Positions 1-15,322 of a stretch of DNA of 20,000 bases are shown here, in pieces. The stretch is from Psammoneis japonica (Eukaryota). Under the pieces are notes generated by a model. It worked only from the letters and a program-made list of their open reading frames with translations, was not told where the DNA came from and ran no database searches. The stretch spans positions 298,929-318,928 of the forward strand of contig QPGO01000107.1 of NCBI GenBank assembly GCA_008632985.1, written 5' to 3'. Numbering within the stretch: position 1 is the stretch's first letter; every line of letters starts with the position of its first letter. A program made the position numbers and the translations under genes.

Positions 1-2520
1 AAGACAGTGACTGTGCTTGCAACAATGTCTTTTTGAAAAGACTCTCCTGCAATCCTGCCCAAAAATTTGGACCTCCCAAACCAGTGCACGTGCACATGGA
101 TGAGAACAACATCAACACACTTGAGTTGGCCATTGTGGTGGCATGCAAAATTCCTGAAGAAGTTTTTGTTGTTGTTGATTTAGAAGAAAATCACAATGTG
201 ATGTGCTGCAACATTGACCCATCTGATGATGACCTCAAGCTGTGCATCATTGGACACAACTCTTAAAACAGCGCCACCATGGCAACATTTTTTGTCTGCA
301 CAATGATTTTGAAAGATTGTGTCCTCCTGATTCATGGATGACAAAAATTGCACCTCATGCAACAAAAACCACCAAGGAGGAATGGTCGACCCACATGAAA
401 TGACAGCCACTGGACAAACAAAAATCTGTTTTGGACCAATTGCACAAACATGAAACCAAGTGAAACAACATTGGTTTGCACACGTTTGTCATTGTCGTTG
501 CAACTTGTCTCAACAATTCTTGGAGAATCAACACAGGTTGGCCCATCCAGAATGACAAAAATGACTTGAACAACCCCACTCCATTGAGTCCAGATCACAC
601 CATCAATTGTCAACATCCAGATGACAATGTGCTCTGGAGCTGCAACTTCATTTTCAAGCTGCAGAACACACATCTCATTGTCATCATGAATGAAGTCATG
701 CCCCTCATTTGCACGAATGAAGTCATGCTGGCTTTTTTGATGGTGATGAACAAAACTCTCAGCACATGCTTGGAGAACTCTCTTTTGTTTTCTTGTGAGC
801 CTGTTTCCACCATGACAATGTGCCGCCAAAGCCATGACAACAACAAACCAACAAAACCACAACAAACTTCAAAATGGAAACAGTTGCACAATGCTTGCCA
901 ATGACTTCTTCCTCATGACCTTGTTGAATTGCACAGAACTTGACATGCAAGAGAGACCAGTCTTGCCAAACCAGAAAAAGATGTTCTTTTAAATGTCAGT
1001 TGTTGATGACATTGAAGAAAAACAACACAAATGCCTTGCCGAGATTTGTAAAAAAAAAAAAGCAAGTGAGCACTCATTGTCCCACACATCACCAAAGGAC
1101 ACAAAAGACAAAAAACCCATTCAATCCAATGTGTGTGCCACAGACACAAACAAATCAAAATGTGTTTGAACTGTCTGCACTTTGACATCATGCAAAGCCC
1201 ATTGGGATTTGTGTGAACACCTGCACAACCTGTGTGAGACCACAGAACAATCAGCGCCAAAATGACTGAAAAAAACCTTGACTCATTTCATCCAACCAGA
1301 TCACCAGGTTTGGAAAACAAAAGCAAATCAATGCCAGTCATCATGCCAGGCACGATGCTCAAATCCCAACAAAAGAGCAAATCTGTCATTTTACAAATGT
1401 GTTTGACAATGAAAAAATTTCATTTGGGTGTTCTTGCCGAGCCATTGCAGATGGTCACACAAAGCAGAAAGCTCCTGTGGAACAAGTGCTGCACGCGTGC
1501 CATTGTTGAAGGTCATTTGAAAACTGGTTCCCCTTTGGAAACCTTGATTTGAGCAACAGCTGGAAGCTGTTGCAGAGCCTGTGACAACAAAGAAAACTGC
1601 AACAAAAACAAGCAATTCTTGCAAATGCAAAATGGGTGAAGTGCACCTTGCATGCGCAAGCTTGCCAACTGTCATGCTGCACTCTCACTCTCTGCTGCAG
1701 TGCAGAGCAGGTGCCAGCAGAGGCTCTCTGCTCTAAAGCCAGCACATGGAGAGGCACTGATGGCACTGCTGCATCTCTTTGCATCTGACGTCCACTGCAA
1801 CTTTGACCAAGACAACCTCGCTGCTGCAGCATGTGCCCCCCCCCCCCCCCCCCCCACTTCAAGATGCCATCTGGTGGTGCTGCAGCACTTTTCTTCAACA
1901 CTTTGCTGCCCAGCCCCAACCCCTTCTGTTGTGAGAGCACTTCCACTGCACCGTGTCCCACAGTGTCAGCTGGCAGTGTTGGCCACCACACTCCATCTCT
2001 GCCAGTGCTGTCCCCCATTTCTGGTGTCACTCAGTTGGCTCACTCCACCAAATGCACAACCCCATGCCCTCAGCACCATGGGAGCAGGCAAGCCTCTCAC
2101 CCTCCCACCTCCTTCTGTGCACATGCTCTCTGGCATGAACAGGGGCCACTCTTCCCACCAGTCATCTCTGCATGCCTCCACTGGGTCCAACGACATTTTG
2201 GGCAAGCACAAGGCACTCCCCCCACCAAGTGGCATCTTGTCATGTGTGCGCTGCAGCCCTGCTGGGGGCTGCCAACAAGTCCCACGGTGCTGTCACAGTT
2301 TGGCAAAGCACCATGTTTTGCTGTGTGGGTGCTGCACCTGCTGGCCACACCCGCTGCTTGCTTCTTGTTGCTCTTTTTCGTGCATTTTCAAAAAAAATCA
2401 GCAGGTTCTTGTCAAGCACACAAAGGGAGCATGTCATCTGACAAACAGCATCATCCTCAGCAATCAGTGTCTTCCTCCAATCAGAGAAGAGGGCTCCCAA
2501 AGCTTTCATAGAATTTCATC
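1..2520. mobile_element. Hypermutated repeat/transposon-derived domain (CpG- and TpA-depleted), family unresolved
   Basis: CG and TA nearly absent, CA/TG in excess. ORFs are Cys/His-rich, Tyr-free and broken. Composition matches the identifiable TE relics at 6650-13560 and returns to normal at about 2520-2690. Confidence 0.6.
700..1490 (+). pseudogene. Possible degenerate Ulp1/peptidase C48-like domain relic (transposon-associated)
   Basis: Across frameshifts, motifs occur in C48 order: TNEVMLAF (~713-736, cf. NDEVINFY), DFFLMTLL (~905), AHWDL (His ~1200), LDSFH (~1280) and Q..AESSCG (~1459-1481). Motif recall only. Confidence 0.35.
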
Positions 2521-2707
2521 AGATGACTGAGTTTTCTCAAAGGAACTCTAGGACAATGAAGAAATGATCCCCACAGATTCTCGCTTTCAAATGACACTGT
2601 CAGTGAAACCTCACAATAGATTCTACATACATCTTCAGCAGCAGTTGCTGATGCTCATGAGTAATGACATTCATTTTAGTGCCGTTAGTCAAGTCAATCC
2701 ATTGAGG

Positions 2708-4693: not shown

Positions 4694-5214
4694 CAGTCTG
4701 CTCGCGTTAACATATACTGGGGGTACATACGGTTTTTTAGTATATGTTATAGAGAGGGTATATTATGTTATTCCAGTCTCGTACAAAAGTACGTATATTT
4801 ACCACGTACGTAGAATAAGTACCAAGATTTACGTAGCTTGAAATCTTGCGCTTCTCCCTCACGACTCACGACGCTTTGGGGCCATGTTCGCGCGGCCACC
4901 ACTGTATTTTTTGAAAAAACTCATGACCTGCCTTCATCAATTCTTTGGTCCTGCTAGGTACAAGGAAGCCCAGGACCACTTCTTAGAGTTAAATAATGGT
5001 CAACAAGGGTGTCTACAGTTGTTGTAAGTGTAGTCTTAATGGTTTCATCGCCTCAAACTAGTCGTATCACGGATTCGCAAAATGGTCTGTCGGTCTGTCA
5101 GGCTGTCTGTTTACAGGAAAGTCTGACCTTCGTCCGAGGGGTCAGGCCGGATTTTTTAGTGTGCGTTATAGAGAGAGTATATGTTAAAAAGTGTGTGTTA
5201 GAGCGAGCAGACTG
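4694..5214. mobile_element. Tc1/mariner-type MITE (521 bp) with TA target duplication
   Basis: TA|CAGTCTGCTCGCgttaacatatac at the left end and gtgtgtgttagaGCGAGCAGACTG|TA at the right. 12-bp perfect TIR extending imperfectly to about 24 bp, TA at 4692-4693 and 5215-5216, no coding capacity. Confidence 0.85.
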
Positions 5215-5340
5215 TACTCTCTACTCTAGAGCTAGAGAGGGCCCCACTCTCTAGAGTAGAGAGTAGAGTAGAGAGAGAATGGTGGCAGCTGCTCTCTGCT
5301 CCCTAGAGAGAGAGACTGCAGCTGCTGCAGTCTCTAGCAT
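5215..5340. repeat. CTAG/AGAG low-complexity tract with a 17-bp perfect inverted repeat
   Basis: TACTCTCTACTCTAGAG (5215-5231) and CTCTAGAGTAGAGAGTA (5249-5265) are exact reverse complements with a 17-nt spacer. Confidence 0.8.
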
Positions 5341-6640
5341 GACAGTGCGCGAACATGTTGTGTTGTCTGCCTGCGGGTTGGGGCATCGTCAACAAAATGT
5401 TTCAACTGTCATTTTCAGCGACAAGTTGTTGGTTGTTGAACCCATCTTCACTGGGCTCATTCTCTCCCAGAGTCGAGTGGGTGAAAGGTTGCAAGCAGGA
5501 CCAAGTGGCTCTGGTGCCCCTGTGCTTTTTTGCCAAGCACTCCTGTCAACACCCATGCTGGTCATTTGGCTGGCCAGCTCCTCCATCAGCACCGTTGCAC
5601 TGTGTCCATTGTGTGACTCCCCTCCCTTGTTGCCAAGGATGTCTCTCTTTGTTGGACAGTGCAGTTGTTGATGGGTTGAAGATTGCTGTGTCCATTGCAT
5701 GTGGTGGCAACAGCTTGTCCTCTGCCAGACATGAGCACATTTGGGAGCACAGCAATTGGTCAGAGTTTGTTGTGGGCTTGATGGACTGGGGTGTGTGCGC
5801 TCTGCAAGCAAGAGATGTGTGTCTGTGGTCACACTGGCTTGTGACTTGTTGTCAACAGACAAGACTGTTTGTTGGCATGGCCCAGCCAGCCTGTGCTTCT
5901 GTGTTTCTTGTCAGCACCCAGCCAATGGAGAATGAACAGGGCTGTGCAGCCAAATGCTTGCATTGCAAACCATGGCAAAGGCCATTTCTCCAGGGGCTTT
6001 GAAAATGTTGTGACAAGTTGGGACAATGCCTCCTCCTCTTCATGGCTTTTTTCCTGCATTTTGGAAGCATGGTTTCATGGGCTGATGAGTTGTCTGTGGA
6101 GCTGCCTGCAAGGAGTCTGAGAGAGACAGAGCCCGCATTCAAAGAACTGCAGAGAGTGTGTGCAGAGAACATCCAAGCTGTGGAGCATGCATCAGACTGC
6201 TCATTTGCATGAATCTAGCATCCTTTGGTGGTGCCAAGAAGGAAACAAGCCTGCCAAAAAGTGGGAACTTTCTCATCCGGAAATCTTGGTGGGGCCCATG
6301 GGATGACACAACCACAGGCCAAAGTTCACAGACATGATGGCATTGAGTCTGAGAAATCTGCTGAGCAACAATGAAGCAGAGCTTGTGGCTGTGTGCAACA
6401 AGCTTCAAGAACATCAGGTCAAGGATCACAAGCAGAAGAACATCAATTGCACTCCACTGCCAAGGTCAGCAATTGGGTGGCCATGGTGTGGCCCTGTCTG
6501 AAAGAAAGTGTCAATGAGGCCAGAAGTGCCAAAATTCTGGCTGACCCTCATCCCAGTCCCTTCTGCCATGCTGGCTGTCAGTGCACTGGAGAAGTGTGGT
6601 GGGTCAGCATTTGCTGGCTTTTGCGGAAAAAAGCGCAGTG
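5340..6640. mobile_element. Unidentified hypermutated repeat fragment(s)
   Basis: Same CG/TA depletion. Coding-like plus-strand relics (WADELSVELPARSLRETEPAFKELQRV, NLLSNNEAELVAV). No Copia RNase H motifs recognised where they would be expected. Confidence 0.45.
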
Positions 6641-6649
6641 GTGCCCATG

Positions 6650-8090
6650 GACTGGACTTTTTTTGTGTCCTTGTTGTCAGCTTTGAATGCAGTCTGATTG
6701 TCAGGCCTGGCCCTCACCAGGGAGAGATGCAGCTGCTTGTGGTGGTGAAACATGCACAAGCTGGCCCACTTTGTTCTTGCTCAACAATGGCATCAAGGCA
6801 TCAATGGCAAAACAGGCTTTTTTTGGCAGGGTGTGCTGTGACACCCCTGACATTGCCTGGAACCCAATGGCCAATGGTGCACTGAAGAACACAGCCCTTC
6901 TTTGTGAATTTGACCCTGCCATCCCCAGAGAAATCAGTGGTCATTTGTGCAGCACTTTGCTCCAACATGCAGTGATGGGCACACTGTTTTCTACCTGCAC
7001 TTGTTGTTGAGGGCCATGGCAATGTCCAGTGGCACCCACCATTTGATGTGAAATGGTTTCATTTCATCAGCAACATGCCACATTGTGGCACAGTGCTTGC
7101 CACATTGATGGTCTTGTTGACCATGCACCAATCATGTGGGTTCCTTGACTTGAGTCCTGGGTCTCACCTGCACAGGAATGAGGGCAGATTCATCCAGAGG
7201 AGAAGAGCTCCTTGGAGGATTCCATGTGTGGTCACTTTTTCAGCTCCATGAACAACACAGGTTTTCCCTTCTCTCCATTGCCACACACTTGTGGCACTTC
7301 CTTGCATCAACCCAGTGGAGCAACTCAGCCAGTCTTGTGTGTGTCAACCAGCCCATGATGTCACTGTGCATGAATGCACCTTGCAAGTTGGTGCTCATTG
7401 CTTGGCATTGCTCCTGTGGATCAATTGCAGAAGACAGAAATGAGGTGTGGGATTGCTTCTGTCAGTGCAGAGATGTTTCCTCTTTGCTTTTGTGTGGTCG
7501 TTGTTTCTTCCTGTCAGTGCATCTCCTGCCCTTGATTGCGCTGTCGACGCGTTCCAGCCGTAGGTGGGACTCCGTGTGACATTGGGCCCGTAGAATTCTA
7601 CGTGCGAGCTCCGTAGTACGAGAATTTAATTAATGGATACATTTATCTTCAACATCAAATAAACCGCCAAGTTTGTGGTACAATAGTGCCTCTCACCACT
7701 CGACTTTTTTGCAAATACGCCTGCCCTACGCGATTCTTAAGACATTATAGAATCGCGCTGTAACAAAAAATGTCAAAAGTTGTTGGACGGATCGCTCAAT
7801 AAGTGTACTGTAAAATGACACAAAATATCGAAAAAATCACGTAGAAATCTACGTGCGCGACATACGACGTGATTCAAAAAACTGTCGATGTCACAGTTCA
7901 GTAGTACGAGGTCCCACCTCTAGTAGACCTGGAACACGTCTGTCTTGCCTCTGCTTGAGACACATGAAATGCCTTTGTGTGTTTTTCTTTTGCTCCCTTG
8001 TTGTGTCTTTGGCAAACACCAGCTGGACAACATTGCAGAAGGATGGCTGCTTCATTTGCTTGACCACAGCATCAGCTCTGGCTCTGCCAA
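6650..8090 (-). pseudogene. Copia reverse transcriptase relic, split by the MITE at 7546-7940
   Basis: AVVKQMKQ..TREQKKNTQRHFMCLKQRQD|SAIKGRRCTDRKKQRPHKSKEETS; SAIDPQE..TNLQGAFMHSD; HGILQGALLLW (cf. LYGxLQSALLFW); NPHDWCMVNKTIN.KHCATMWHVAD (cf. NPYDxCVANKxINGKQCTIxWHVDD); MTTDFSGDGRVKF; RARPDNQTA. Confidence 0.9.
7546..7940. mobile_element. Non-autonomous TIR element (395 bp MITE) with 4-bp TSD TGTC, inserted in the Copia RT
   Basis: TGTC|GACGCGTTCCAG..AGGTGGGAC..TGTGACA at the left and TGTCACA..GTCCCACCT..CTGGAACACGTC|TGTC at the right. Removing it restores the RT frame (CAA GAC AGC GCA ATC AAG GGC). A 5-bp CTGTC reading is possible but makes the ends asymmetric. Confidence 0.88.
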
Positions 8091-8909
8091 GCCAACATCC
8101 ACTTGGCAAGGAAAAGTGCCCCCCACCGGGCCTTCAAAGTGTTGGATGATTGGGCGCAGCAGCCAGCCCAGCTCATGATTGCATCTGTGGCTGCAGCCCT
8201 TCTCCTTGCAAGCTTGAAGGTTGCACACCTGGCGCTCCTCTTTCCACATCAGCACCTGTGGTCTGCCAGTGCCACCATCATTGTCTTCCTCTTTGTCACA
8301 GTCACAACCAGAGTTGGGGCCACACTCCACTTGGAGGGCAGGTGCTTGGTCATCCCAGTTTGCCCCCATGACTTCAATTTTCATTGCTCATGTCTTTGGT
8401 CTGTCCCAACTGAGCTTGTCTGGGAATGAGTTCCAGCACCTGGTCTGAGTCAGTGCTGCCCACATCCGCTCCTGCATTTTCTGCTGGTTTGGTCTGTCAC
8501 TCCCCACTCTGGCTTCTTGAGCAGCTTCTTCCACTCCAGTCATTGCACTGGGGCACAGAGTGTTTTCTGTTGAGGGGTCTTCCACTCTTGCTGTTGGCAC
8601 CTCTCTCCAGCAAGTCTCCCACTCATGTGGTTGCCTTGGCTGTGGGCGACACATCTGCTCCACCAGCCAGTGCATCAGATCTCCATTGGAAGCCATTGTT
8701 GGTGGGTGCACTCCTGTGACCCAAGTGTGTCTGGACAAGGGTTGGGTCTGAAATCAGCATCATCTGAGGGATCAGATGAGCAGCCACCATTGTCAAGGAG
8801 GAGTTGTCAGCAGAGTTGTCATTGTTGGGGTCACAGCTTGTGCTCTCATTGTGCACAGAGTTGGGGTGGTGGGGAAGTCAATGTCCACATCTGTCAGCAA
8901 AGGCAAGGG

Positions 8910-9460
8910 TTCAGCACATGTCTTGGCTGGCCCTGAGTTTGTCAACATGGTGAACAACATCAGACAGCATGGGCATGGCTGTCCAGTGGTTTTTGCAAAT
9001 GACATCATGCTTGTTGCCAGTGGTGAGAAACATGAAATGGTGCCCCCCTTGTCCATTTCCTGCAAGTCTGAGGCAGACAGCACTGGTGGTTGTTGGGTGC
9101 ACAGTGTTGTTGCACTCTTCATGGACCTGAGCACAGCTGCCAAACTCAAGGGTTGTGCATGTTTTTGACTGTCAATGTGCTGACCAGTGGTGACACAGCT
9201 CCCTGGTTGTGCTGCCAGGGTTCAGGAGCAGTGCATTGAGCCAGGAAGTGGAGCTGCAGACCAAATGAATGAGGATCATTTGCAAGGTTTGCTTGAAGGG
9301 AAGGGAGCTGAAGCCACTGTGCCTCCTGTCCTTGACTGTTCAGATGCGTTGCTCAACATCTGCCATGTGCACTCATCCTGTGAGTGTGCAGGTTGAATGC
9401 TGCATTTGGCATGAGGTCCTCAAGGGCCTGGAATTCTGGGTCAGCATGAATGGTTGCTGT
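8910..9460 (-). pseudogene. Copia integrase core and C-terminal relic
   Basis: TIHADPEFQALEDLMPNAAFN..QDE..MADVEQRI*TVKDR..SSLPFK..LIHLVCSSTSWLNAL; LEFGSCAQVHEE; TSAVCLRLAGNGQGGHHFMFLTTG..HWTAMPM. Confidence 0.9.
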
Positions 9461-9478
9461 CAGGGTTTGTCAGTGCCA

Positions 9479-9890
9479 ACACCTGAGGACCATGTGACCT
9501 TCTTGAGCATGGCAGCTGCAGCACTGCCCCTGCTGTGTGGTGGCACATGCACTGAGCTTGCTGCTCTTGTTGCCACCACCACATCCTTTTGGGCTTGTTG
9601 TGCTGCTCAATGTCCTGCACTTTGTCTGGCTCCTCTGTTGCACTGGTTGACAGCGACCCTTTCAGTTGTGAAGGCTGGCTCAGTTTTGTCACTGTGAGTG
9701 CCACCATTGTGGTGCTCAGGTGGCACACAGTTGAGGGTGCAGCTGCAGCAGGTTCCTCTGCAGACTTTGGGCCATTGTCCAAACCCCTTGAGCACTTGCT
9801 TCAATGTCTGCCACAAGGTTCCCACATCAATTGTGGTTGCTGTTGAGGAGGGGAAAACACCCCCAACAGATTGACTTTGTCCCCTCACAG
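9479..9890 (-). pseudogene. Copia gag C-terminal relic with CCHC zinc knuckle
   Basis: LLNSNHN*CGNLVADIE (cf. LLNSDxxRYGxLVxDIEN); LKGFGQWPK..LNCVPP; knuckle-like QCCSCHAQEGHMVLRC at about 9526-9479. Confidence 0.75.
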
Positions 9891-10119
9891 ATCAGTCACA
9901 AAATGGGAATCCCGGACTCAGCATGGGTTCCATGTTGTTTGCAGGACTCCCCCCCCCCCCCCCAGTGGCCAGAGCTGGCATTGGGCAAAAGATTTAAAAG
10001 TTCACTTCAGCTGCAGCATGCTGCATCAATCCTCTTGCTGTCTCTCCCACCAGCATTTAATTTGCTGTGTTGTGTTGTTTGCTTCATCATTGACTGTGTC
10101 AAGTGTGGGTGGTGATGAG

Positions 10120-11107
10120 GTTTCTGAGCCAGTGCTGAAGTGCAAGAGAATCAAAAATGTCTTTGAGCTTGACCCTTGGATCAACCCTGATGCAGGCAAG
10201 AGTGTCTTCACTGACAATGAGTTGGACAGTGCACTCTCCAAAATTGCACACAATGAGTGGTGTGGTGCATTCCTGCACAAGGAGACAAACTGTTTTGGAG
10301 ATTCAAGAGGTGGGTGCCAAGGAAACTGAAGATTGGACAACAACAAGTGGCACGTTGTCCATTTCAATGTCAAAGCAAGTGCAACTGCCATGTGGAGATT
10401 GTTCAAAACCATCCAAACAACAACCAAATTTCCAAAGGATTGGTGCCTCATGCTGACTGCAATGTGTCTTTCTACAAGAGCCAACTGGCAAAACAAGTCT
10501 TGCAAGTCTTTGGCTTGCCATGGCATGCTGAGTTGCATCTGAGTCAATTGCTTCAAAAGGGCCTTGGACAGAATTTGAATCTTGACAAGGGTGCACAGAG
10601 GAAAGCCCAGAGGATGCTTTCAAAACAAGCCAAGCAAGTGTTGAGGTTGTGCCCCACCAATGGAGAGAGTGGAGTGGGGTGGGGATGCATTGTGGATGCC
10701 CTTGAGAGATGCAAGCATGACTCCATGAGTCCTGACGCATTCAACAAGCACACAACATGGGTGCTTTTGTGGTGACAAGCATTTTTGTGACAGCAACGCA
10801 GAGCAACTGTGTTGTGCTTTTTCTGCAGAGAATCTGCTGCTGAAAAGATGTTGTCAACTTGCGCCAGGGCAGAATTTCTTTGCTGTCAACACATTGCACC
10901 CACAAAAAGGCTGGTTTAATGCCAATCAAGGTTGTCAGTTTTAAACGAGATGGCCACATTGTTGCATGTGGTGTTGCATCAAATGAAGATGAGGAAACAT
11001 GCAAAATCATCTTTCAGAGCATCAAGAAGGCTGTGAAAGATGTTGTTGGTAGATGTGTTGCTTGTGGGGATCAGCATGCTTGGGATGCAGTGGAGAGAGC
11101 AAAGTGA
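10120..11107 (+). pseudogene. Mutator/MULE-like transposase N-terminal relic
   Basis: RCPFQCQSKCNCHVEI..PHAD (WRKY-like zinc finger); CFSAENLLL; GLMPIKVVSFKRDGHIVACGVASNEDEETCKIIFQSIKKAV resembles the MULE domain segment after the first catalytic Asp (VAYxxxSxExxExY). Confidence 0.6.
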
Positions 11108-11130
11108 CAGTGGAATTTAAATGCTTGTCA

Positions 11131-11311
11131 ACACAATGCAACACAGTGCAATGCAGTGAAATGTGGTGCAACATGCTCTGGCCACCACCAGCTGGTTTAC
11201 ACTCAATTTTGCAATGAAATCATGAGTTGATCATTTGATCTTGGAAATTGATTGTAAAGAAAATGTTGTGCAATGCCATGCAATGCAGCACAACACATGC
11301 AATGCAACACA
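11131..11311. repeat. Degenerate pentamer microsatellites (11131-11175 and 11268-11311)
   Basis: Units acaca atgca acaca gtgca atgca gtgaa atgtg gtgca acatg, and gtgca atgcc atgca atgca gcaca ... Confidence 0.7.
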
Positions 11312-11364
11312 GAAACAGCTCATTGACTTGCATTCAATTTTGCACTCCAATCACAAATCTTTCA

Positions 11365-11868
11365 TTTGGGCTTCATGAGTCAATCATCAGGGCTCCTCCA
11401 TGCTTTGCAGTCTTGGGACAACTGAAAAACTCAATGTCATTTCTCAGTGCTTTGCCATGGCACATGAATGGCAGTGCTGTGCATGATGCTGGCAATCTTG
11501 CATGTGCCAGACATGAACCTGTGTTGATGCCTCATTCCAAAAGCTCTTTTGTTGGCATTGCTTGCAGCCCTTTGTGTGTGAGCATTGTGTGAAGCTCTTT
11601 TGTTGTGACTCAAGTCATGTCATCTGATGGTTGGATCAACCTCACAATGTGGAATGTCTTGATTCAATCCACAGCCATTTCACAACTCATGTCACACTCA
11701 GTGATGGCTTTTTCAGGGTTCAGGAGCAGCGTCTTTGTCTTGTGTTGATGCAGCCATCAATTTGTTGCAAGGCCTTTTTTGCATGCATCAATGTCATCTG
11801 CATTGATGCCAAGGGCAACAAGGTCATTCTCATGAAATGCTGCCCCCAACAATGTGTGGCCCTTGCAG
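11365..11868 (-). pseudogene. Possible SWIM zinc-finger (MULE C-terminal) relic; second copy at 12497-12948
   Basis: IKTFHIVRLI followed by SCLAHAR..MHSTAIH, resembling a decayed CxC-xn-CxH SWIM motif, ending KHGGALMIDS*. Confidence 0.4.
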
Positions 11869-11870
11869 CA

Positions 11871-12986
11871 GCAGCCATTCCAAGATGCCCACGGCCCTGT
11901 GGATTTGCTTCAAGGGTCACACATTGTTGGGGGCAGCACTGCATGAATGATCTTGTTGTTGACCTTGGCGTTGATGCAGACCAACCCCAATGCAGGCAAG
12001 AGTGTCTTCACTGACAATGAGTTGGGCAATGCACTCTCCAAAATTGCACACAATGAGTGGTGGTGTGTTCCTGCACAAGGAAACAAAGTGTTTTGGAAGT
12101 TCAAGAGGGGTGGGATCCAAGGAAGCTGAAGGGTGGACAACAACAAGTGGCGTGTTGTCCATTTCAGTGTCAAAGCAAGAGCAACTGCCACATGGAGATT
12201 GTTCAAAACCATCCAAACAAGAATCAAATTTTCAAAGGATTGATGCCTCATGCTGACCACAATGTGTCTTCTTTCTACAATGGCCAACTGGCAAAACAAG
12301 TCTTGCAAGTCTTTGGCTTGCCATGGCATGCTCAGTTGCATCTGAGTCAATTGTTTCAGAAGGGCCTTGGACAGAATCTGAATCTTGACAAAGGTGCACA
12401 GAGAAAAGCCCAGAGGATGCTTTCAAAACAAGCCAAGCAAGTGTTGAGGTTGCACCTCACCAACAGAGAGAGTGGAGTGGGGTGGGGATGCATTGTGGAC
12501 AACAGGAAAACTCAATGTCATTTCTCAGTGCTTTGCCATGTGGCACATGAATGGCAGTGCCGTGCATGATGCTGGCAATCTTGCATGTGCAAGACAAGAG
12601 ACCTGTGTTGATGCCTCATTTTCCAACAGCTCTTCTGTTGGCATTGCTTGCAGCCCATTGTGTGCAAGCATTGTGTGAAGCTCTTTTGTTGTGACTCAAG
12701 TCATGTCATCTGATGAAGGGATCAGCCTCACAATGTGGAATGTTTTGATCAAATCCACAGCCATTTCACAACTCATGTTGAACCCAGTGATGGCATTTTT
12801 AGGGTTCTGGAGCAGTGTCTTGTGTTGGTGCAGCCGTCAATTTGTTGCAAGACATTTTTTGCACACATCAAGAATGTCACCTGCATCAATGCCAAGGTCA
12901 ACAAGATCATTCATGCAGTGCCACCCCCAACAATGTGCGACCCTTGCAGTGCATCCACAGGGCCACGGGCATCTTGGAATGGCTGC
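11871..12986. repeat. Local segmental duplications: 11982-12499 matches 10182-10696; 12497-12948 matches 11416-11868; 11871-11979 is an inverted copy of 12881-12986
   Basis: Alignment by eye, e.g. ATGCAGGCAAGAGTGTCTTCACTGACAATGAGTTGG and AAAACTCAATGTCATTTCTCAGTGCTTTGCCATG each occur twice. Confidence 0.92.
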
Positions 12987-13109
12987 TGAAAAGAAAAAAG
13001 CGGCCCTCTTGTCAAATTGATGTGGAGTGAAATTTCATTGGTGGTTTTGCCAGCTGAAGCAGTTGAAAAAAATCCCAGAAAACAGAGTCCTAAAATGAGG
13101 AGTTGGTGC

Positions 13110-13560
13110 CTGTTGAGGAGGGGCACACCCGAGCACTTGTTCTGGATGGTGGTCTCTGCCTTGGCCTGTTCTTTTGCCAATGGGGCATCAGCACCCACAT
13201 CTGACTCTTGCAGAAAGGCACTGACCTGCTTGGGGTGCATGCCAATCTGGCCTGTCATGCACTCCATGATGCCCATGAGTTCTCTTGCATTGTCACAGCA
13301 ATCTGCACTGGACATGTGGAGGGTTTGATGGAAGGTGAGTGGTGCATGTTCAGTGTCAATGATCATGTGCATGGGGGGAGGGACTTCTCCTGGTCTGCTT
13401 CTGCATCATGCAGTTTTGGATCAGCTCAAGTCAGCCAATGATGCTGGCATTGCCGTTGACATCTCTCCAGTCGCTCCTTGTGTGCTTCCATCCAGTTTCT
13501 GAGAGGTCAGGTGCTGGACAAGTGTTGGGGTGAAGACTCCACCCAAAACTTGTGATGTGA
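13110..13560 (-). pseudogene. Copia gag N-terminal/middle relic
   Basis: LRNWMEAHK..WRDVNGNASIIG*LELIQNCMMQKQTRR; EHAPLTFHQTLHMSSADCCDNARELMGIMECMTGQIGMHPKQV..AKAETTIQNKCSGVPLLN. Resembles diatom Copia gag with Tyr replaced by His/Cys. Confidence 0.75.
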
Positions 13561-14006
13561 TTGGCCTTGCTGGACGTAGGAACTAGTGCTGTTGATCTCC
13601 AAGAGCATTGAAAAATGACCCTCTTTGGATGGTTTAGCTGCTAAATATTTGCTCATTCATGACAAAGATGCAATTTGTGTTCAACGATGTGTCTTGTAGA
13701 CATTATTTTGAAACGAAGCATTGCTATCAAAACTACGAAGAGCCGTCTGTCTAGAGCACGGAAGAGCTCGTTGGTTTGAGCCGACAGATTCTTTGCTTCC
13801 CTCGTCCCCTGAAACGCACTGCAATGAATTCTCCGAGACACCCAGTATCGCATGAAAGAGACTAGAGGGTTCCTTTCCATCGTGGTTCTCGTGCGAGCGC
13901 CAAGACGATTGATCGTTCACAGTTCACACAAGACGTTGCAGGTGTCATGATTATCAGTGTGCATGAATGGACGAATATGGTGTTCATCACGATGAAAACA
14001 TCTGAA

Positions 14007-15322
14007 TCACTCCAGTTCAGGGATGTCCAAATCAATGCTTCCTTCTCGCATGTCGGCGTTGAGGTACATGACAGCCTCGGAAACCGCAGATCGGCCATGA
14101 ATCATTTGTTCGCACTTGGCCATGGCCAAAATATCAATCAATACTTCCTTGTTGGTTCTATGGTGTGATGCTAAATCGAAGGTTGGAGTCTCGTCCTTGG
14201 ATCGAAGGGCAGTCCCCTGCGTTCTACTTGCTTCATGACTTCCTCCGGCCACTTCTTCTTCATTGTCTTTAGGGTGGATTCGGAGTCCGTTGCGAGATAA
14301 ATAATGTTACCATTGGAGGCAGTGTAGACACCCTTTCTTCGTCTAATGCCAAGATACTTTAACGCATAAGGCAGGTAGTCACGCAGTTCGATCTCAGACC
14401 TCCCGCCGCTGAGCTCCTTGTCCGTTGTTCTGACATGCATTGCAAGGCATTGCTGTCCATCGCGCAATGGGTTGGCTTGTTCAACAGCCTCTAAAACCCA
14501 AGGTTTGGGATGAAAGTATCGTCGAACAACGGTGGCAGCACGCCGTCTCATGGGTCGATACCACTGTTCGAGTGACATGGAATTCCGCTCCTCTTCTGAA
14601 ATTTCTTTGTAGGGCCATGCCATGACACCCCAATCAATCTGAGAGTGCAAACCTGTAGCAACCTGCTCGATATCAAGCTCATAAAGAGGCTTGCTCTTGT
14701 CTTTACAAATCATGTTTCGTGCCGGTGAAAAGGCCGACACTGGTTCAAAGTAGGATTCCCATACCCCGTTCCCCTCCACAACCTCCTCCTCTAGCATTGC
14801 TCTCCGGACTTGTCTGCTTTTAAACAAGGGCGCAGGTTCGGGATCAAGCGGTACATAATCTTCTCCACTTGGAATTTCTCCCTTTAACGTTTCAAAGGTA
14901 CGTGTCGGTCCAGTGCCATGAACGTCAGGGTCGTAGATGCGATGAGACGTGTCATCCAAGTGTATCCACGGCAGGAGGTTGTGTTTTTCTGCATAAAGCA
15001 AATGGTTGACCATGTAGATGAAAAAGACTGTACCAAATGCAGCTCCCTCATCTCCCGATCGAATACGAAGGACTCCATCGTATCCACGGCAAATATCATC
15101 CTCTTTGTTGTCGTACGGCTGCGATGTTGATTTGTTCTGCGTTCGTCGTGAATTAACGGTAGTGTCAACAACAAACGTGTCTTGTCGTTGTTGTACGGAA
15201 CGAATGGAGCGCTCCGCCTCCAATAAAAGTAAACAAGCAATGAGTAGAATCGCTGCAAAGGTCAATTGAAGACGTCTCGAGTGCTGACGTTTCATGTTAG
15301 ACGGATCGTTGTGGGCGGTCAT
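14007..15322 (-). CDS. Fucosyltransferase-like glycosyltransferase (GT23/NodZ/FUT8-type motifs), type II membrane; one apparent 1-nt deletion near 14225
   Basis: Signal anchor LQLTFAAILLIACLLLL; motif I AMHVRTTDK; motif II IYLATDS; motif III LIDILAMAKCEQMIHGRSAVS lies in the shifted frame (ORF 14007-14252). First ATG at 15322. Confidence 0.8.

Follow-up and report, generated by a model that had tools for sequence, protein, structure and literature searches.

The closest precedent for the DNA described here is the TpA hypermutation of viral DNA integrated in the genome of Bigelowiella natans (Mettrop et al., bioRxiv 10.64898/2026.01.13.699255, 2026 preprint). The subject of the present analysis is a 20,000-nucleotide stretch of contig QPGO01000107.1 from Psammoneis japonica (positions 298,929 to 318,928 of the forward strand; hereafter the window), in which three copies of a putative MULE-like DNA transposon, named A, B and C, lie in DNA almost devoid of the dinucleotides CG and TA. 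Both CG and TA were lost from this DNA by mutation. We consider it probable that these copies are dead members of a multi-copy family within a silenced block of a probable diatom genome, and that the reciprocal TG/CA differences now seen between the copies are mainly flips made in two steps.

In the mutation-accumulation lines of B. natans, 230 of the 231 new mutations in two viral regions, one of them single-copy, were A>G or T>C, all on TpA, at a rate of about 6e-7 per site per generation (10.64898/2026.01.13.699255). Coding sequences of that genome that are depleted in TpA and enriched in CpA/TpG were found to be enriched in DDE-transposase and reverse-transcriptase domains, and an ADAT2-like DNA adenine deaminase was suggested by the authors; a term search of the text found no mention of CpG, diatom or stramenopile (10.64898/2026.01.13.699255).

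The window resembles the B. natans regions in the conversion of TpA to TpG or CpA by A>G and T>C changes, in the sharp limits of the foreign or mobile regions that are affected, single-copy DNA included, and in a long-term depletion of TpA accompanied by enrichment in CpA and TpG. It differs in that CG is lost here (0.09 of expectation) as completely as TA and with the same borders, whereas GC>AT changes are negligible there. The depletion is also far deeper, with TA here at 0.03 of its expected frequency and a Rho of 0.45 in the nucleocytoplasmic large DNA virus (NCLDV) region of B. natans; the host is probably a diatom (a stramenopile) and not a rhizarian; and the mutation rate was measured there, whereas the process is read here from sequence alone.

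Repeat-induced point mutation (RIP) of ascomycete fungi is restricted to duplicated sequence, acts by C>T changes mainly at CpA, makes TpA and lowers the GC content; A>G changes are not part of it. The window shares with fungal RIP dense, block-wise transitions in transposon DNA with sharp borders, as well as duplicated copies that were mutated independently. It differs from RIP in the destruction of TpA (0.03), in the unchanged GC content (0.486 in the affected blocks and 0.468 outside), in the presence of A>G changes and in the mutation of the stretch 9000-9767, which is single-copy at a likeness of at least 80% among the contigs of run X1, although this stretch is possibly an old repeat or was reached by spill-over. 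Run X1 is the one public run through whose contigs the family copies were viewed, and it is possibly the sample from which the window itself was assembled. RIP of the fungal type was ruled out as the cause, since its products are new TpA and a reduced GC content. Diatom transposons carry CpG methylation, and diatoms also possess DNMT4 enzymes, which are relatives of the RIP factor RID (PMC9998398).

Decay of 5-methyl-CpG, as in vertebrates, plants and diatoms, similarly turns CG into TG or CA in silenced transposon DNA, and Arg CGN codons into CAN or TGN. It is unable to remove TA or to turn Tyr codons into Cys or His, and the CG level of the window (0.09) is more extreme than is usual for such decay.

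Results

Hypermutated blocks

Dinucleotide composition separates three blocks from the rest of the window:

1..2590, no strand: hypermutated block 1, in which CG and TA are nearly gone and TG and CA are about doubled
5400..7538, no strand: hypermutated block 2, delimited by dinucleotide composition
7546..7940, no strand: unmutated insertion of 395 bases, similar to a miniature inverted-repeat transposable element (MITE), separating block 2 from block 3; its terminal inverted repeats are segmented, and TGTC flanks it on both sides
7941..13575, no strand: hypermutated block 3, containing copies A, C and B and the stretch 9000-9767, single-copy in the contigs of run X1

Over the 10,257 bases of the blocks that were counted, CG was observed 57 times against 601 expected (0.09) and TA 22 times against 673 expected (0.03). 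TG (1265 against 667; 1.90) and CA (1176 against 622; 1.89) showed the opposite trend: the joint deficit of 1195 CG and TA is balanced by an excess of 1152 TG and CA, and the remaining 12 dinucleotides stand at 0.87-1.23. The corresponding values for the remainder of the window (9,192 bases) were 1.04 for CG, 0.54 for TA and 1.16 for both TG and CA. At each of the five block borders, the loss of CG and that of TA start or stop together, with an agreement of about 70 bases or better.

The stretch 9000-9767 is as hypermutated as the family copies, yet it is represented in run X1 by one contig only, at a depth of 58.8, which corresponds to a single copy. The erasing process therefore also affects sequence without present-day repeats.

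Copies A, B and C of the transposon

The duplication reported for this region by an earlier reading of the sequence (the first-pass annotation) is real: both repeat pairs were recovered by repeat finding and self-BLAST, 10179-10696 being 90.8% identical to 11979-12499 and 11416-11868 being 87.6% identical to 12497-12949. The parts are listed here together with the pseudogene recognised through P0121, a metagenomic homolog of the transposase:

10084..11080, + strand: transposase pseudogene of copy A; tblastn with P0121 gives four pieces in different frames, summed E 8e-70
10179..10696, + strand: copy A, first shared segment, inside the N-terminal half of a degenerate MULE-like transposase gene; the P0121 tblastn match covers the segment
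10697..11415, + strand: copy A-only segment of 719 bases, missing from copy B, with a putative remnant of the MULE transposase domain (open reading frame (ORF) 10844-11104)
11416..11868, + strand: copy A, second shared segment, 87.6% identical to 12497-12949 and covered by no homolog
11869..11985, - strand: fragment C, inverted; matches 12881-12988 as the third occurrence of the end piece and pairs with the end of copy A in a hairpin
11979..12988, + strand: copy B, 5'-truncated and without the 719-base segment; deletion junction at 12497-12499

Copy A (10179-10696 plus 11416-11868) and copy B (11979-12949) were compared by global pairwise alignment. The part between the first and the last runs of 10 matches was taken as the core, which, after removal of 23 gap columns, holds 928 ungapped columns with 91.9% identity. 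Its 75 differing columns, 54 of them transitions, form 56 events: 39 single, 15 double and 2 triple.

For the end piece, present in all three copies, a three-way comparison with the first 14 alignment columns dropped found that B and C share 7 differences, against 4 and 4 for the other pairings, and B and C also have a 2-base deletion in common. The two may, weakly, be regarded as the closest pair. Fragment C, being inverted, forms with the end of copy A a hairpin (11797-11980) of some 70 bases, whose loop measures 35-39 nt. The hairpin coincides exactly with the A/B junction, which suggests rearrangement by fold-back or template switching, not transposition.

An exhaustive protein search with the 172-aa ORF at 10257-10772 found five relatives, of which P0121 was the best (E 3e-36, 44% identity). 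Word-indexed protein searches found no relatives of this ORF among proteins of near length, nor of the 87-aa MULE ORF among longer proteins. As the four pieces of P0121 matched on copy A are in different frames, the pseudogene contains at least three frameshifts; residues 295-355 match 10898-11080 with 57% identity, and residues 56-227 match copy B (tblastn E 1e-36). The ORF at 10844-11104 matched the Pfam MULE domain (PF10551) with E = 0.03 and 15.2 bits, the cut-off being 27.6. The proteins P0125 (E 1.5e-4, 22.6 bits) and P0121 (E 1.5e-3, 19.4 bits) also remained below the cut-off, both being truncated proteins that match profile positions 2-61 of 99. These matches point to copy A as a frameshifted pseudogene of a MULE-like transposase and to copy B as a 5'-truncated copy with an internal deletion. 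The sole match of a metagenome scan with P0121 (locus L001) was rejected as a chance peptide-pattern match; its contig is GC-rich, looks bacterial and has CG and TA at normal levels.

The element resembles described MULEs in the order of its predicted transposase, a zinc-finger-like N-terminal region followed by the MULE domain, and in belonging to a multi-copy family with several deletion derivatives. It differs from them in that its Pfam matches are below cut-off, in that no pair of terminal inverted repeats and no 9-11-base target-site duplication of the element was found in 7900-14200, and in that copy B is 5'-truncated and hence not a standard non-autonomous derivative. In run X1 the family is multi-copy from about 9866 rightwards, a left border known only from loose ends of contigs, with up to six contigs per site and several other deletion joints.

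Codon evidence for the mutational loss of CG and TA

P0121, an intact relative, and copy A were compared over 325 aligned residues, of which 155 are identical. None of the 11 Tyr positions of P0121 is kept in copy A, where they are occupied by five Cys (TGY), one His (CAT), one Trp (TGG), one Arg (CGT), two Phe and one Ile. Control residues were kept far more often: 9/12 for Phe (Tyr against Phe, p = 3e-4), 5/5 for Trp and 5/5 for Cys. Only 5 of the 22 Arg positions are kept, every one of them as an AGR codon, and the lost ones include six Gln (CAA), three His (CAT) and four Cys (TGY). The replacements of Tyr and Arg are the products expected of TA>TG/CA and CG>TG/CA, which shows that both losses are mutational. 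A neighbour test at first codon positions (T before A>G changes) is confounded by the present excess of TG and was not used.

RNA editing followed by reverse transcription was ruled out as the origin of the changes, the element being a DNA transposon and single-copy flanking DNA also being hit.

Reciprocal TG/CA differences between copies A and B

Nine letter contexts had been quoted in the first-pass annotation as reciprocal two-base differences between the copies, and all nine are present in the A/B alignment (10187, 10352, 10391, 10458, 10650, 11579, 11784, 11804 and 11841). The core contains 10 adjacent TG/CA swaps, at 10268, 10391, 10458, 10650, 10661, 11579, 11693, 11784, 11804 and 11841; the trimming of the core excludes the swap at 10187. 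TG is found in A and CA in B at 8 of the 10 core swaps (two-sided p = 0.11), or at 9 of 11 when 10187 is included (p = 0.065). The other two core swaps, 10268 and the one inside the triple event at 11693, have the opposite orientation. At 10352, the AC/GT difference corresponds to CACG versus CGTG (10351-10354), and the same difference occurs between B and C at 12964-12967. One contig of run X1 carries a further double swap, TGCA to CATG, at 11799-11802.

The number of swaps was compared with two null models, each run with 20,000 shuffles. Shuffling of the alignment columns gave a mean of 0.39 swaps, and random re-placement of the same substitution spectrum on copy A gave a mean of 0.78; the maximum was 5 in both cases, against 10 observed. 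Adjacent differing pairs numbered 19, against a null mean of 6.0 and a maximum of 16, so that the observed number was never reached in the shuffles. The reciprocal swaps are therefore confirmed, and they exceed what random transitions produce.

Tiny inversions, TG being the reverse complement of CA, were set aside as the origin of the swaps for want of a plausible mechanism. Transversions were four times commoner at TG/CA positions of the A/B alignment (17/482) than elsewhere (4/446; Fisher p = 0.007), which may be due to error-prone repair of the same lesions.

Ancestral state of the swap sites

Each swap had been read in the first-pass annotation as the trace of a single ancestral CG or TA that was converted on one strand in A and on the other in B, which would allow the ancestral sequence to be rebuilt. 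Comparison with the homologs covered five swaps and the CACG/CGTG site, none of them in 11416-11868, as P0121 ends at residue 355:

10268: swap; the homolog comparison gives no decision
10352: A CGT, B TGT; Tyr in 4/5 homologs; CpG newly made on a former TA site
10391: swap, A CAT GTG, B CAC ATG; Arg in 5/5 homologs, then Val in 3/5; ancestral CpG or retained TG, not TA
10458: swap, A TGC, B CAC; His in 5/5 homologs; CA ancestral, A flipped
10650: swap, A TGC, B CAC; His in 3/5 homologs including the closest; CA ancestral, A flipped
10661: swap, A AAT GGA, B AAC AGA; Gly in 4/4 homologs; ancestral CpG or retained TG, not TA

At 10458 and 10650, the assignment of CA as the ancestral pair follows from the His of the homologs together with the CAC of copy B. 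At 10352, the CpG is taken as new on a former TA because the CGT of copy A stands at a Tyr position. The letter of B at 10459 is also present in three other contigs of the same organism. Two swaps could be compared with fragment C: at 11841, TG is found in A and C and CA in B, the simplest reading of which would be a flip in B, and at 11804, TG is found in A and CA in B and C.

The assignment of the swaps to ancestral CG or TA thus held only in part. Ancestral CG is compatible with 10391 and 10661, but the ancestral pair was CA at 10458 and 10650, and no swap could be assigned to ancestral TA in the homolog comparison. A single ancestral CG or TA at each swap does not fit these two CA sites, and the rebuilding of the ancestral sequence from the swaps is not supported as a general rule, CA being ancestral at two of the five testable swaps.

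Erasure after the separation of the copies

A and B have 108 TG and 98 CA sites in common; most of the conversion therefore preceded the A/B split. Positions outside pyrimidine-purine steps, treated as unconstrained, carry 27 transitions and 4 transversions in 446 columns. Presuming that TG/CA sites take ordinary transitions at this rate and that the direction of erasure is random, about 26 transitions would be expected at the 216 TG/CA sites, leaving about 13 visible swaps. Ten were seen, so that sites still carrying CG or TA at the split are not needed to account for them.

Five sites keep CG (four) or TA (one) in one copy and have TG or CA in the other. The single discordant TA, at 11714, compares with about 13 expected if TA were stable (P = 3e-5), and the four discordant CG with 13 expected (P = 0.0035). 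From this deficit of new discordant sites it follows that erasure, its TA arm included, continued after the split, in agreement with the activity of a CG/TA-erasing mutator after the separation of the copies that the first-pass annotation had put forward. No pattern was found in the A/B alignment when clustering of the unconstrained transitions beside TG/CA steps was looked for.

Discussion

Alternative explanations

Unresolved CG or TA present at every swap when the copies formed, and later deaminated on opposite strands, would also produce reciprocal differences. This route has support at several sites: 10391, as CGC GTG (Arg Val), fits the Arg and Val of the homologs; 10661, as AAC GGA, fits their Gly; the two CACG/CGTG differences (A/B at 10351-10354, B/C at 12964-12967) resemble a CGCG resolved differently; and CG is still present in one copy at four sites. 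However, neither CG (Arg) nor TA (Tyr) fits the His found at 10458 in all five homologs and at 10650 in three of five, no swap is assignable to ancestral TA, and flips alone predict about 13 swaps against the 10 seen. Moreover, 206 of the 216 TG/CA sites are common to both copies, which indicates near saturation before the split. As the sole route to the swaps, ancestral CG or TA is therefore unlikely. That the swaps are merely independent transitions which happen to be neighbours has a negligible probability: transitions do form the majority of the differences (54/75 columns), but with 0.39-0.78 swaps expected, none of the 20,000 shuffles exceeded 5.

Two further explanations would remove the need for a process acting on TA. 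According to one of them, only methyl-CpG decay took place, and the scarcity of TA either was inherited by the element as a feature of its composition or has nothing to do with mutation. Loss of CpG is common in methylated transposons, diatom transposons are CpG-methylated (PMC9998398), and the clearly polarised single-copy survivors are all CG but one. This explanation is nevertheless very improbable and is contradicted by the Tyr codons, since 6 of the 11 Tyr positions became TGY or CAY and none survives; moreover, TA is reduced to 0.03 in the blocks but only to 0.54 in the genes beside them, the TG and CA excess of 1152 is balanced only when the TA deficit is added to that of CG, and one new TA was found after the split where 13 were expected. 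The other explanation is an artefact, in which modified bases at CG and TA were misread, or the assembler picked randomly among strand-discordant reads; palindromic sites misread on both strands would indeed yield a mixture of TG and CA. No such mixture was seen among the X1 contigs. Independent X1 contigs agree with the window over pieces of 268, 545 and 271 bases with 0-1 differences, although X1 is possibly the sample used for the window's assembly, and a 964-base X1 piece over 9000-9963 has 4 differences, with no alternative contig over 9000-9767. Frameshifts and deletions are as in a real pseudogene, and normal sequence was read for both the MITE-like insert and the genes nearby. An artefact is, on these grounds, extremely improbable.

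Several observations weigh against our own reading of erasure followed mainly by two-step flips. Only 5 of the 10-12 swaps can be tested against homologs, and two of these, 10391 and 10661, fit the ancestral-CpG route equally well. The unconstrained rate on which the flip estimate depends (6.1%, transition:transversion 27:4) is possibly inflated by the mutator itself. A and B may be two neighbouring family members and not a local duplication; at several of their differences, the letter of B is also found in 3-5 other contigs of run X1. One TA, at 10473 and 12276 (TTC TAC AAG, a Tyr where P0121 has Phe), survives in both copies, a survival that fast removal of TA does not predict. In 10338-10810, CGN became CAN at 9/9 sites and TAY became TGY at 4/4 (post hoc, p = 0.0014), an outcome that one strand-specific deaminase with activity on both C and A would not give. 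The strand outcome also varies by region: in 10849-11063 CGN became TGY at 3/3 sites (post hoc), and over the whole region 10338-11075 the outcome was 9:4 versus 1:6 (p = 0.057, post hoc).

Proposed mechanism

In the mechanism that we favour, CpG and TpA, which are self-complementary pyrimidine-purine pairs, would be converted in silenced blocks to TpG or CpA by transitions on either strand, C>T at CpG and A>G at TpA, with TG and CA as stable end states. Most of this conversion would have been complete before A and B separated, and the TG/CA differences that arose afterwards would be mainly two-step flips. An ordinary transition at TG or CA would re-create CG or TA, and this would be quickly removed, half of the time back to the old state and half of the time to the opposite one. 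A minority of the swaps could derive from CpGs that were still unconverted at the split.

The simplest reading of the CpG arm would be that 5-methylcytosine is deaminated where transposon DNA is methylated. In the TpA arm, an enzyme may deaminate adenine in DNA, as proposed for B. natans, for which a candidate enzyme has been suggested there, and both arms may be aimed by the same chromatin or foreign-DNA signal. A bolder version, which we hold to be doubtful, is that a single mutagenic genome-defence machinery of diatoms erases both CpG and TpA in silenced foreign DNA, its TpA arm being ancient and shared with Bigelowiella. Possible forms of this machinery are a DNA deaminase that takes both C and A (ADAT2-like), or deamination directed by symmetric methylation of both sites. 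If so, the TpA arm would be a defence common to stramenopiles, alveolates and rhizarians, and the signature of the machinery would be identical borders of CG and TA loss together with near-total saturation.

Other features of the window

The remainder of the window consists of ordinary genes, among them those of a class-3 lipase and of a FAM192A/Fyv6-like protein. Every named eukaryote among the best matches of the lipase is a diatom, except one unplaced transcriptome entry with the truncated label Tiarin...; the diatoms among these matches are Eucampia, Pseudictyota, Pseudo-nitzschia, Bacillariaceae, Chaetoceros, Stephanopyxis and Odontella. A diatom host is probable on this ground. A strand asymmetry of TG versus CA like that along the blocks is also present in the normal genes of the window. 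Scans of the window for tRNA genes and Rfam families gave no match, and a Pfam scan of 113 ORFs of the hypermutated blocks gave nothing above cut-off and one weak match to MULE.

The MITE-like insert at 7546-7940 has inverted-repeat arms of 12, 14 and 19 nt and contains about 20 CG and about 20 TA. Being unmutated between two hypermutated blocks, it must either have arrived after the surrounding DNA was converted or escape the process. A 59-base palindrome, 82% self-complementary, is located at 5211-5269, just outside the start of block 2.

The 21 TA sites surviving in the blocks that were inspected (for instance 990, 9995, 10058, 10942 and 11118) are mostly TTTAAA-like, rich in T on the 5' side and in A on the 3' side: T precedes 11/21 of them, and the base that follows is A in 11/21 and T in 0/21. 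These sites are either less susceptible or newly made.

Because TAA and TAG are gone, long open frames occur on both strands of the blocks (for example 1640-2530 and 10026-10619), and the 20 kb contain 40 ORFs of at least 120 aa. Gene prediction programs will probably report false genes there.

Significance

No prior description of a dual erasure of CG and TA in a probable diatom was found in a literature search, the TpA-only case of B. natans apart, and for TpA-directed hypermutation of foreign DNA the search found no description beyond the B. natans preprint. The window suggests a TpA process that has run to saturation in a distant lineage, probably a diatom, alongside an erasure of CpG with the same borders.

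The TG/CA swaps between the copies would be a read-out of continuing activity and not a record of ancestral CG or TA, so that consensus-based reversal of the kind used in deRIP would restore a wrong sequence for such elements. To date the activity, the pairs of copies and the MITE-like insert, which is itself unmutated, may serve as internal clocks. Diatoms dominate ecologically, and genetic work is feasible in some of them. With tractable species and RID-like DNMT4 enzymes at hand, the enzyme and the targeting signal of this process could be sought.

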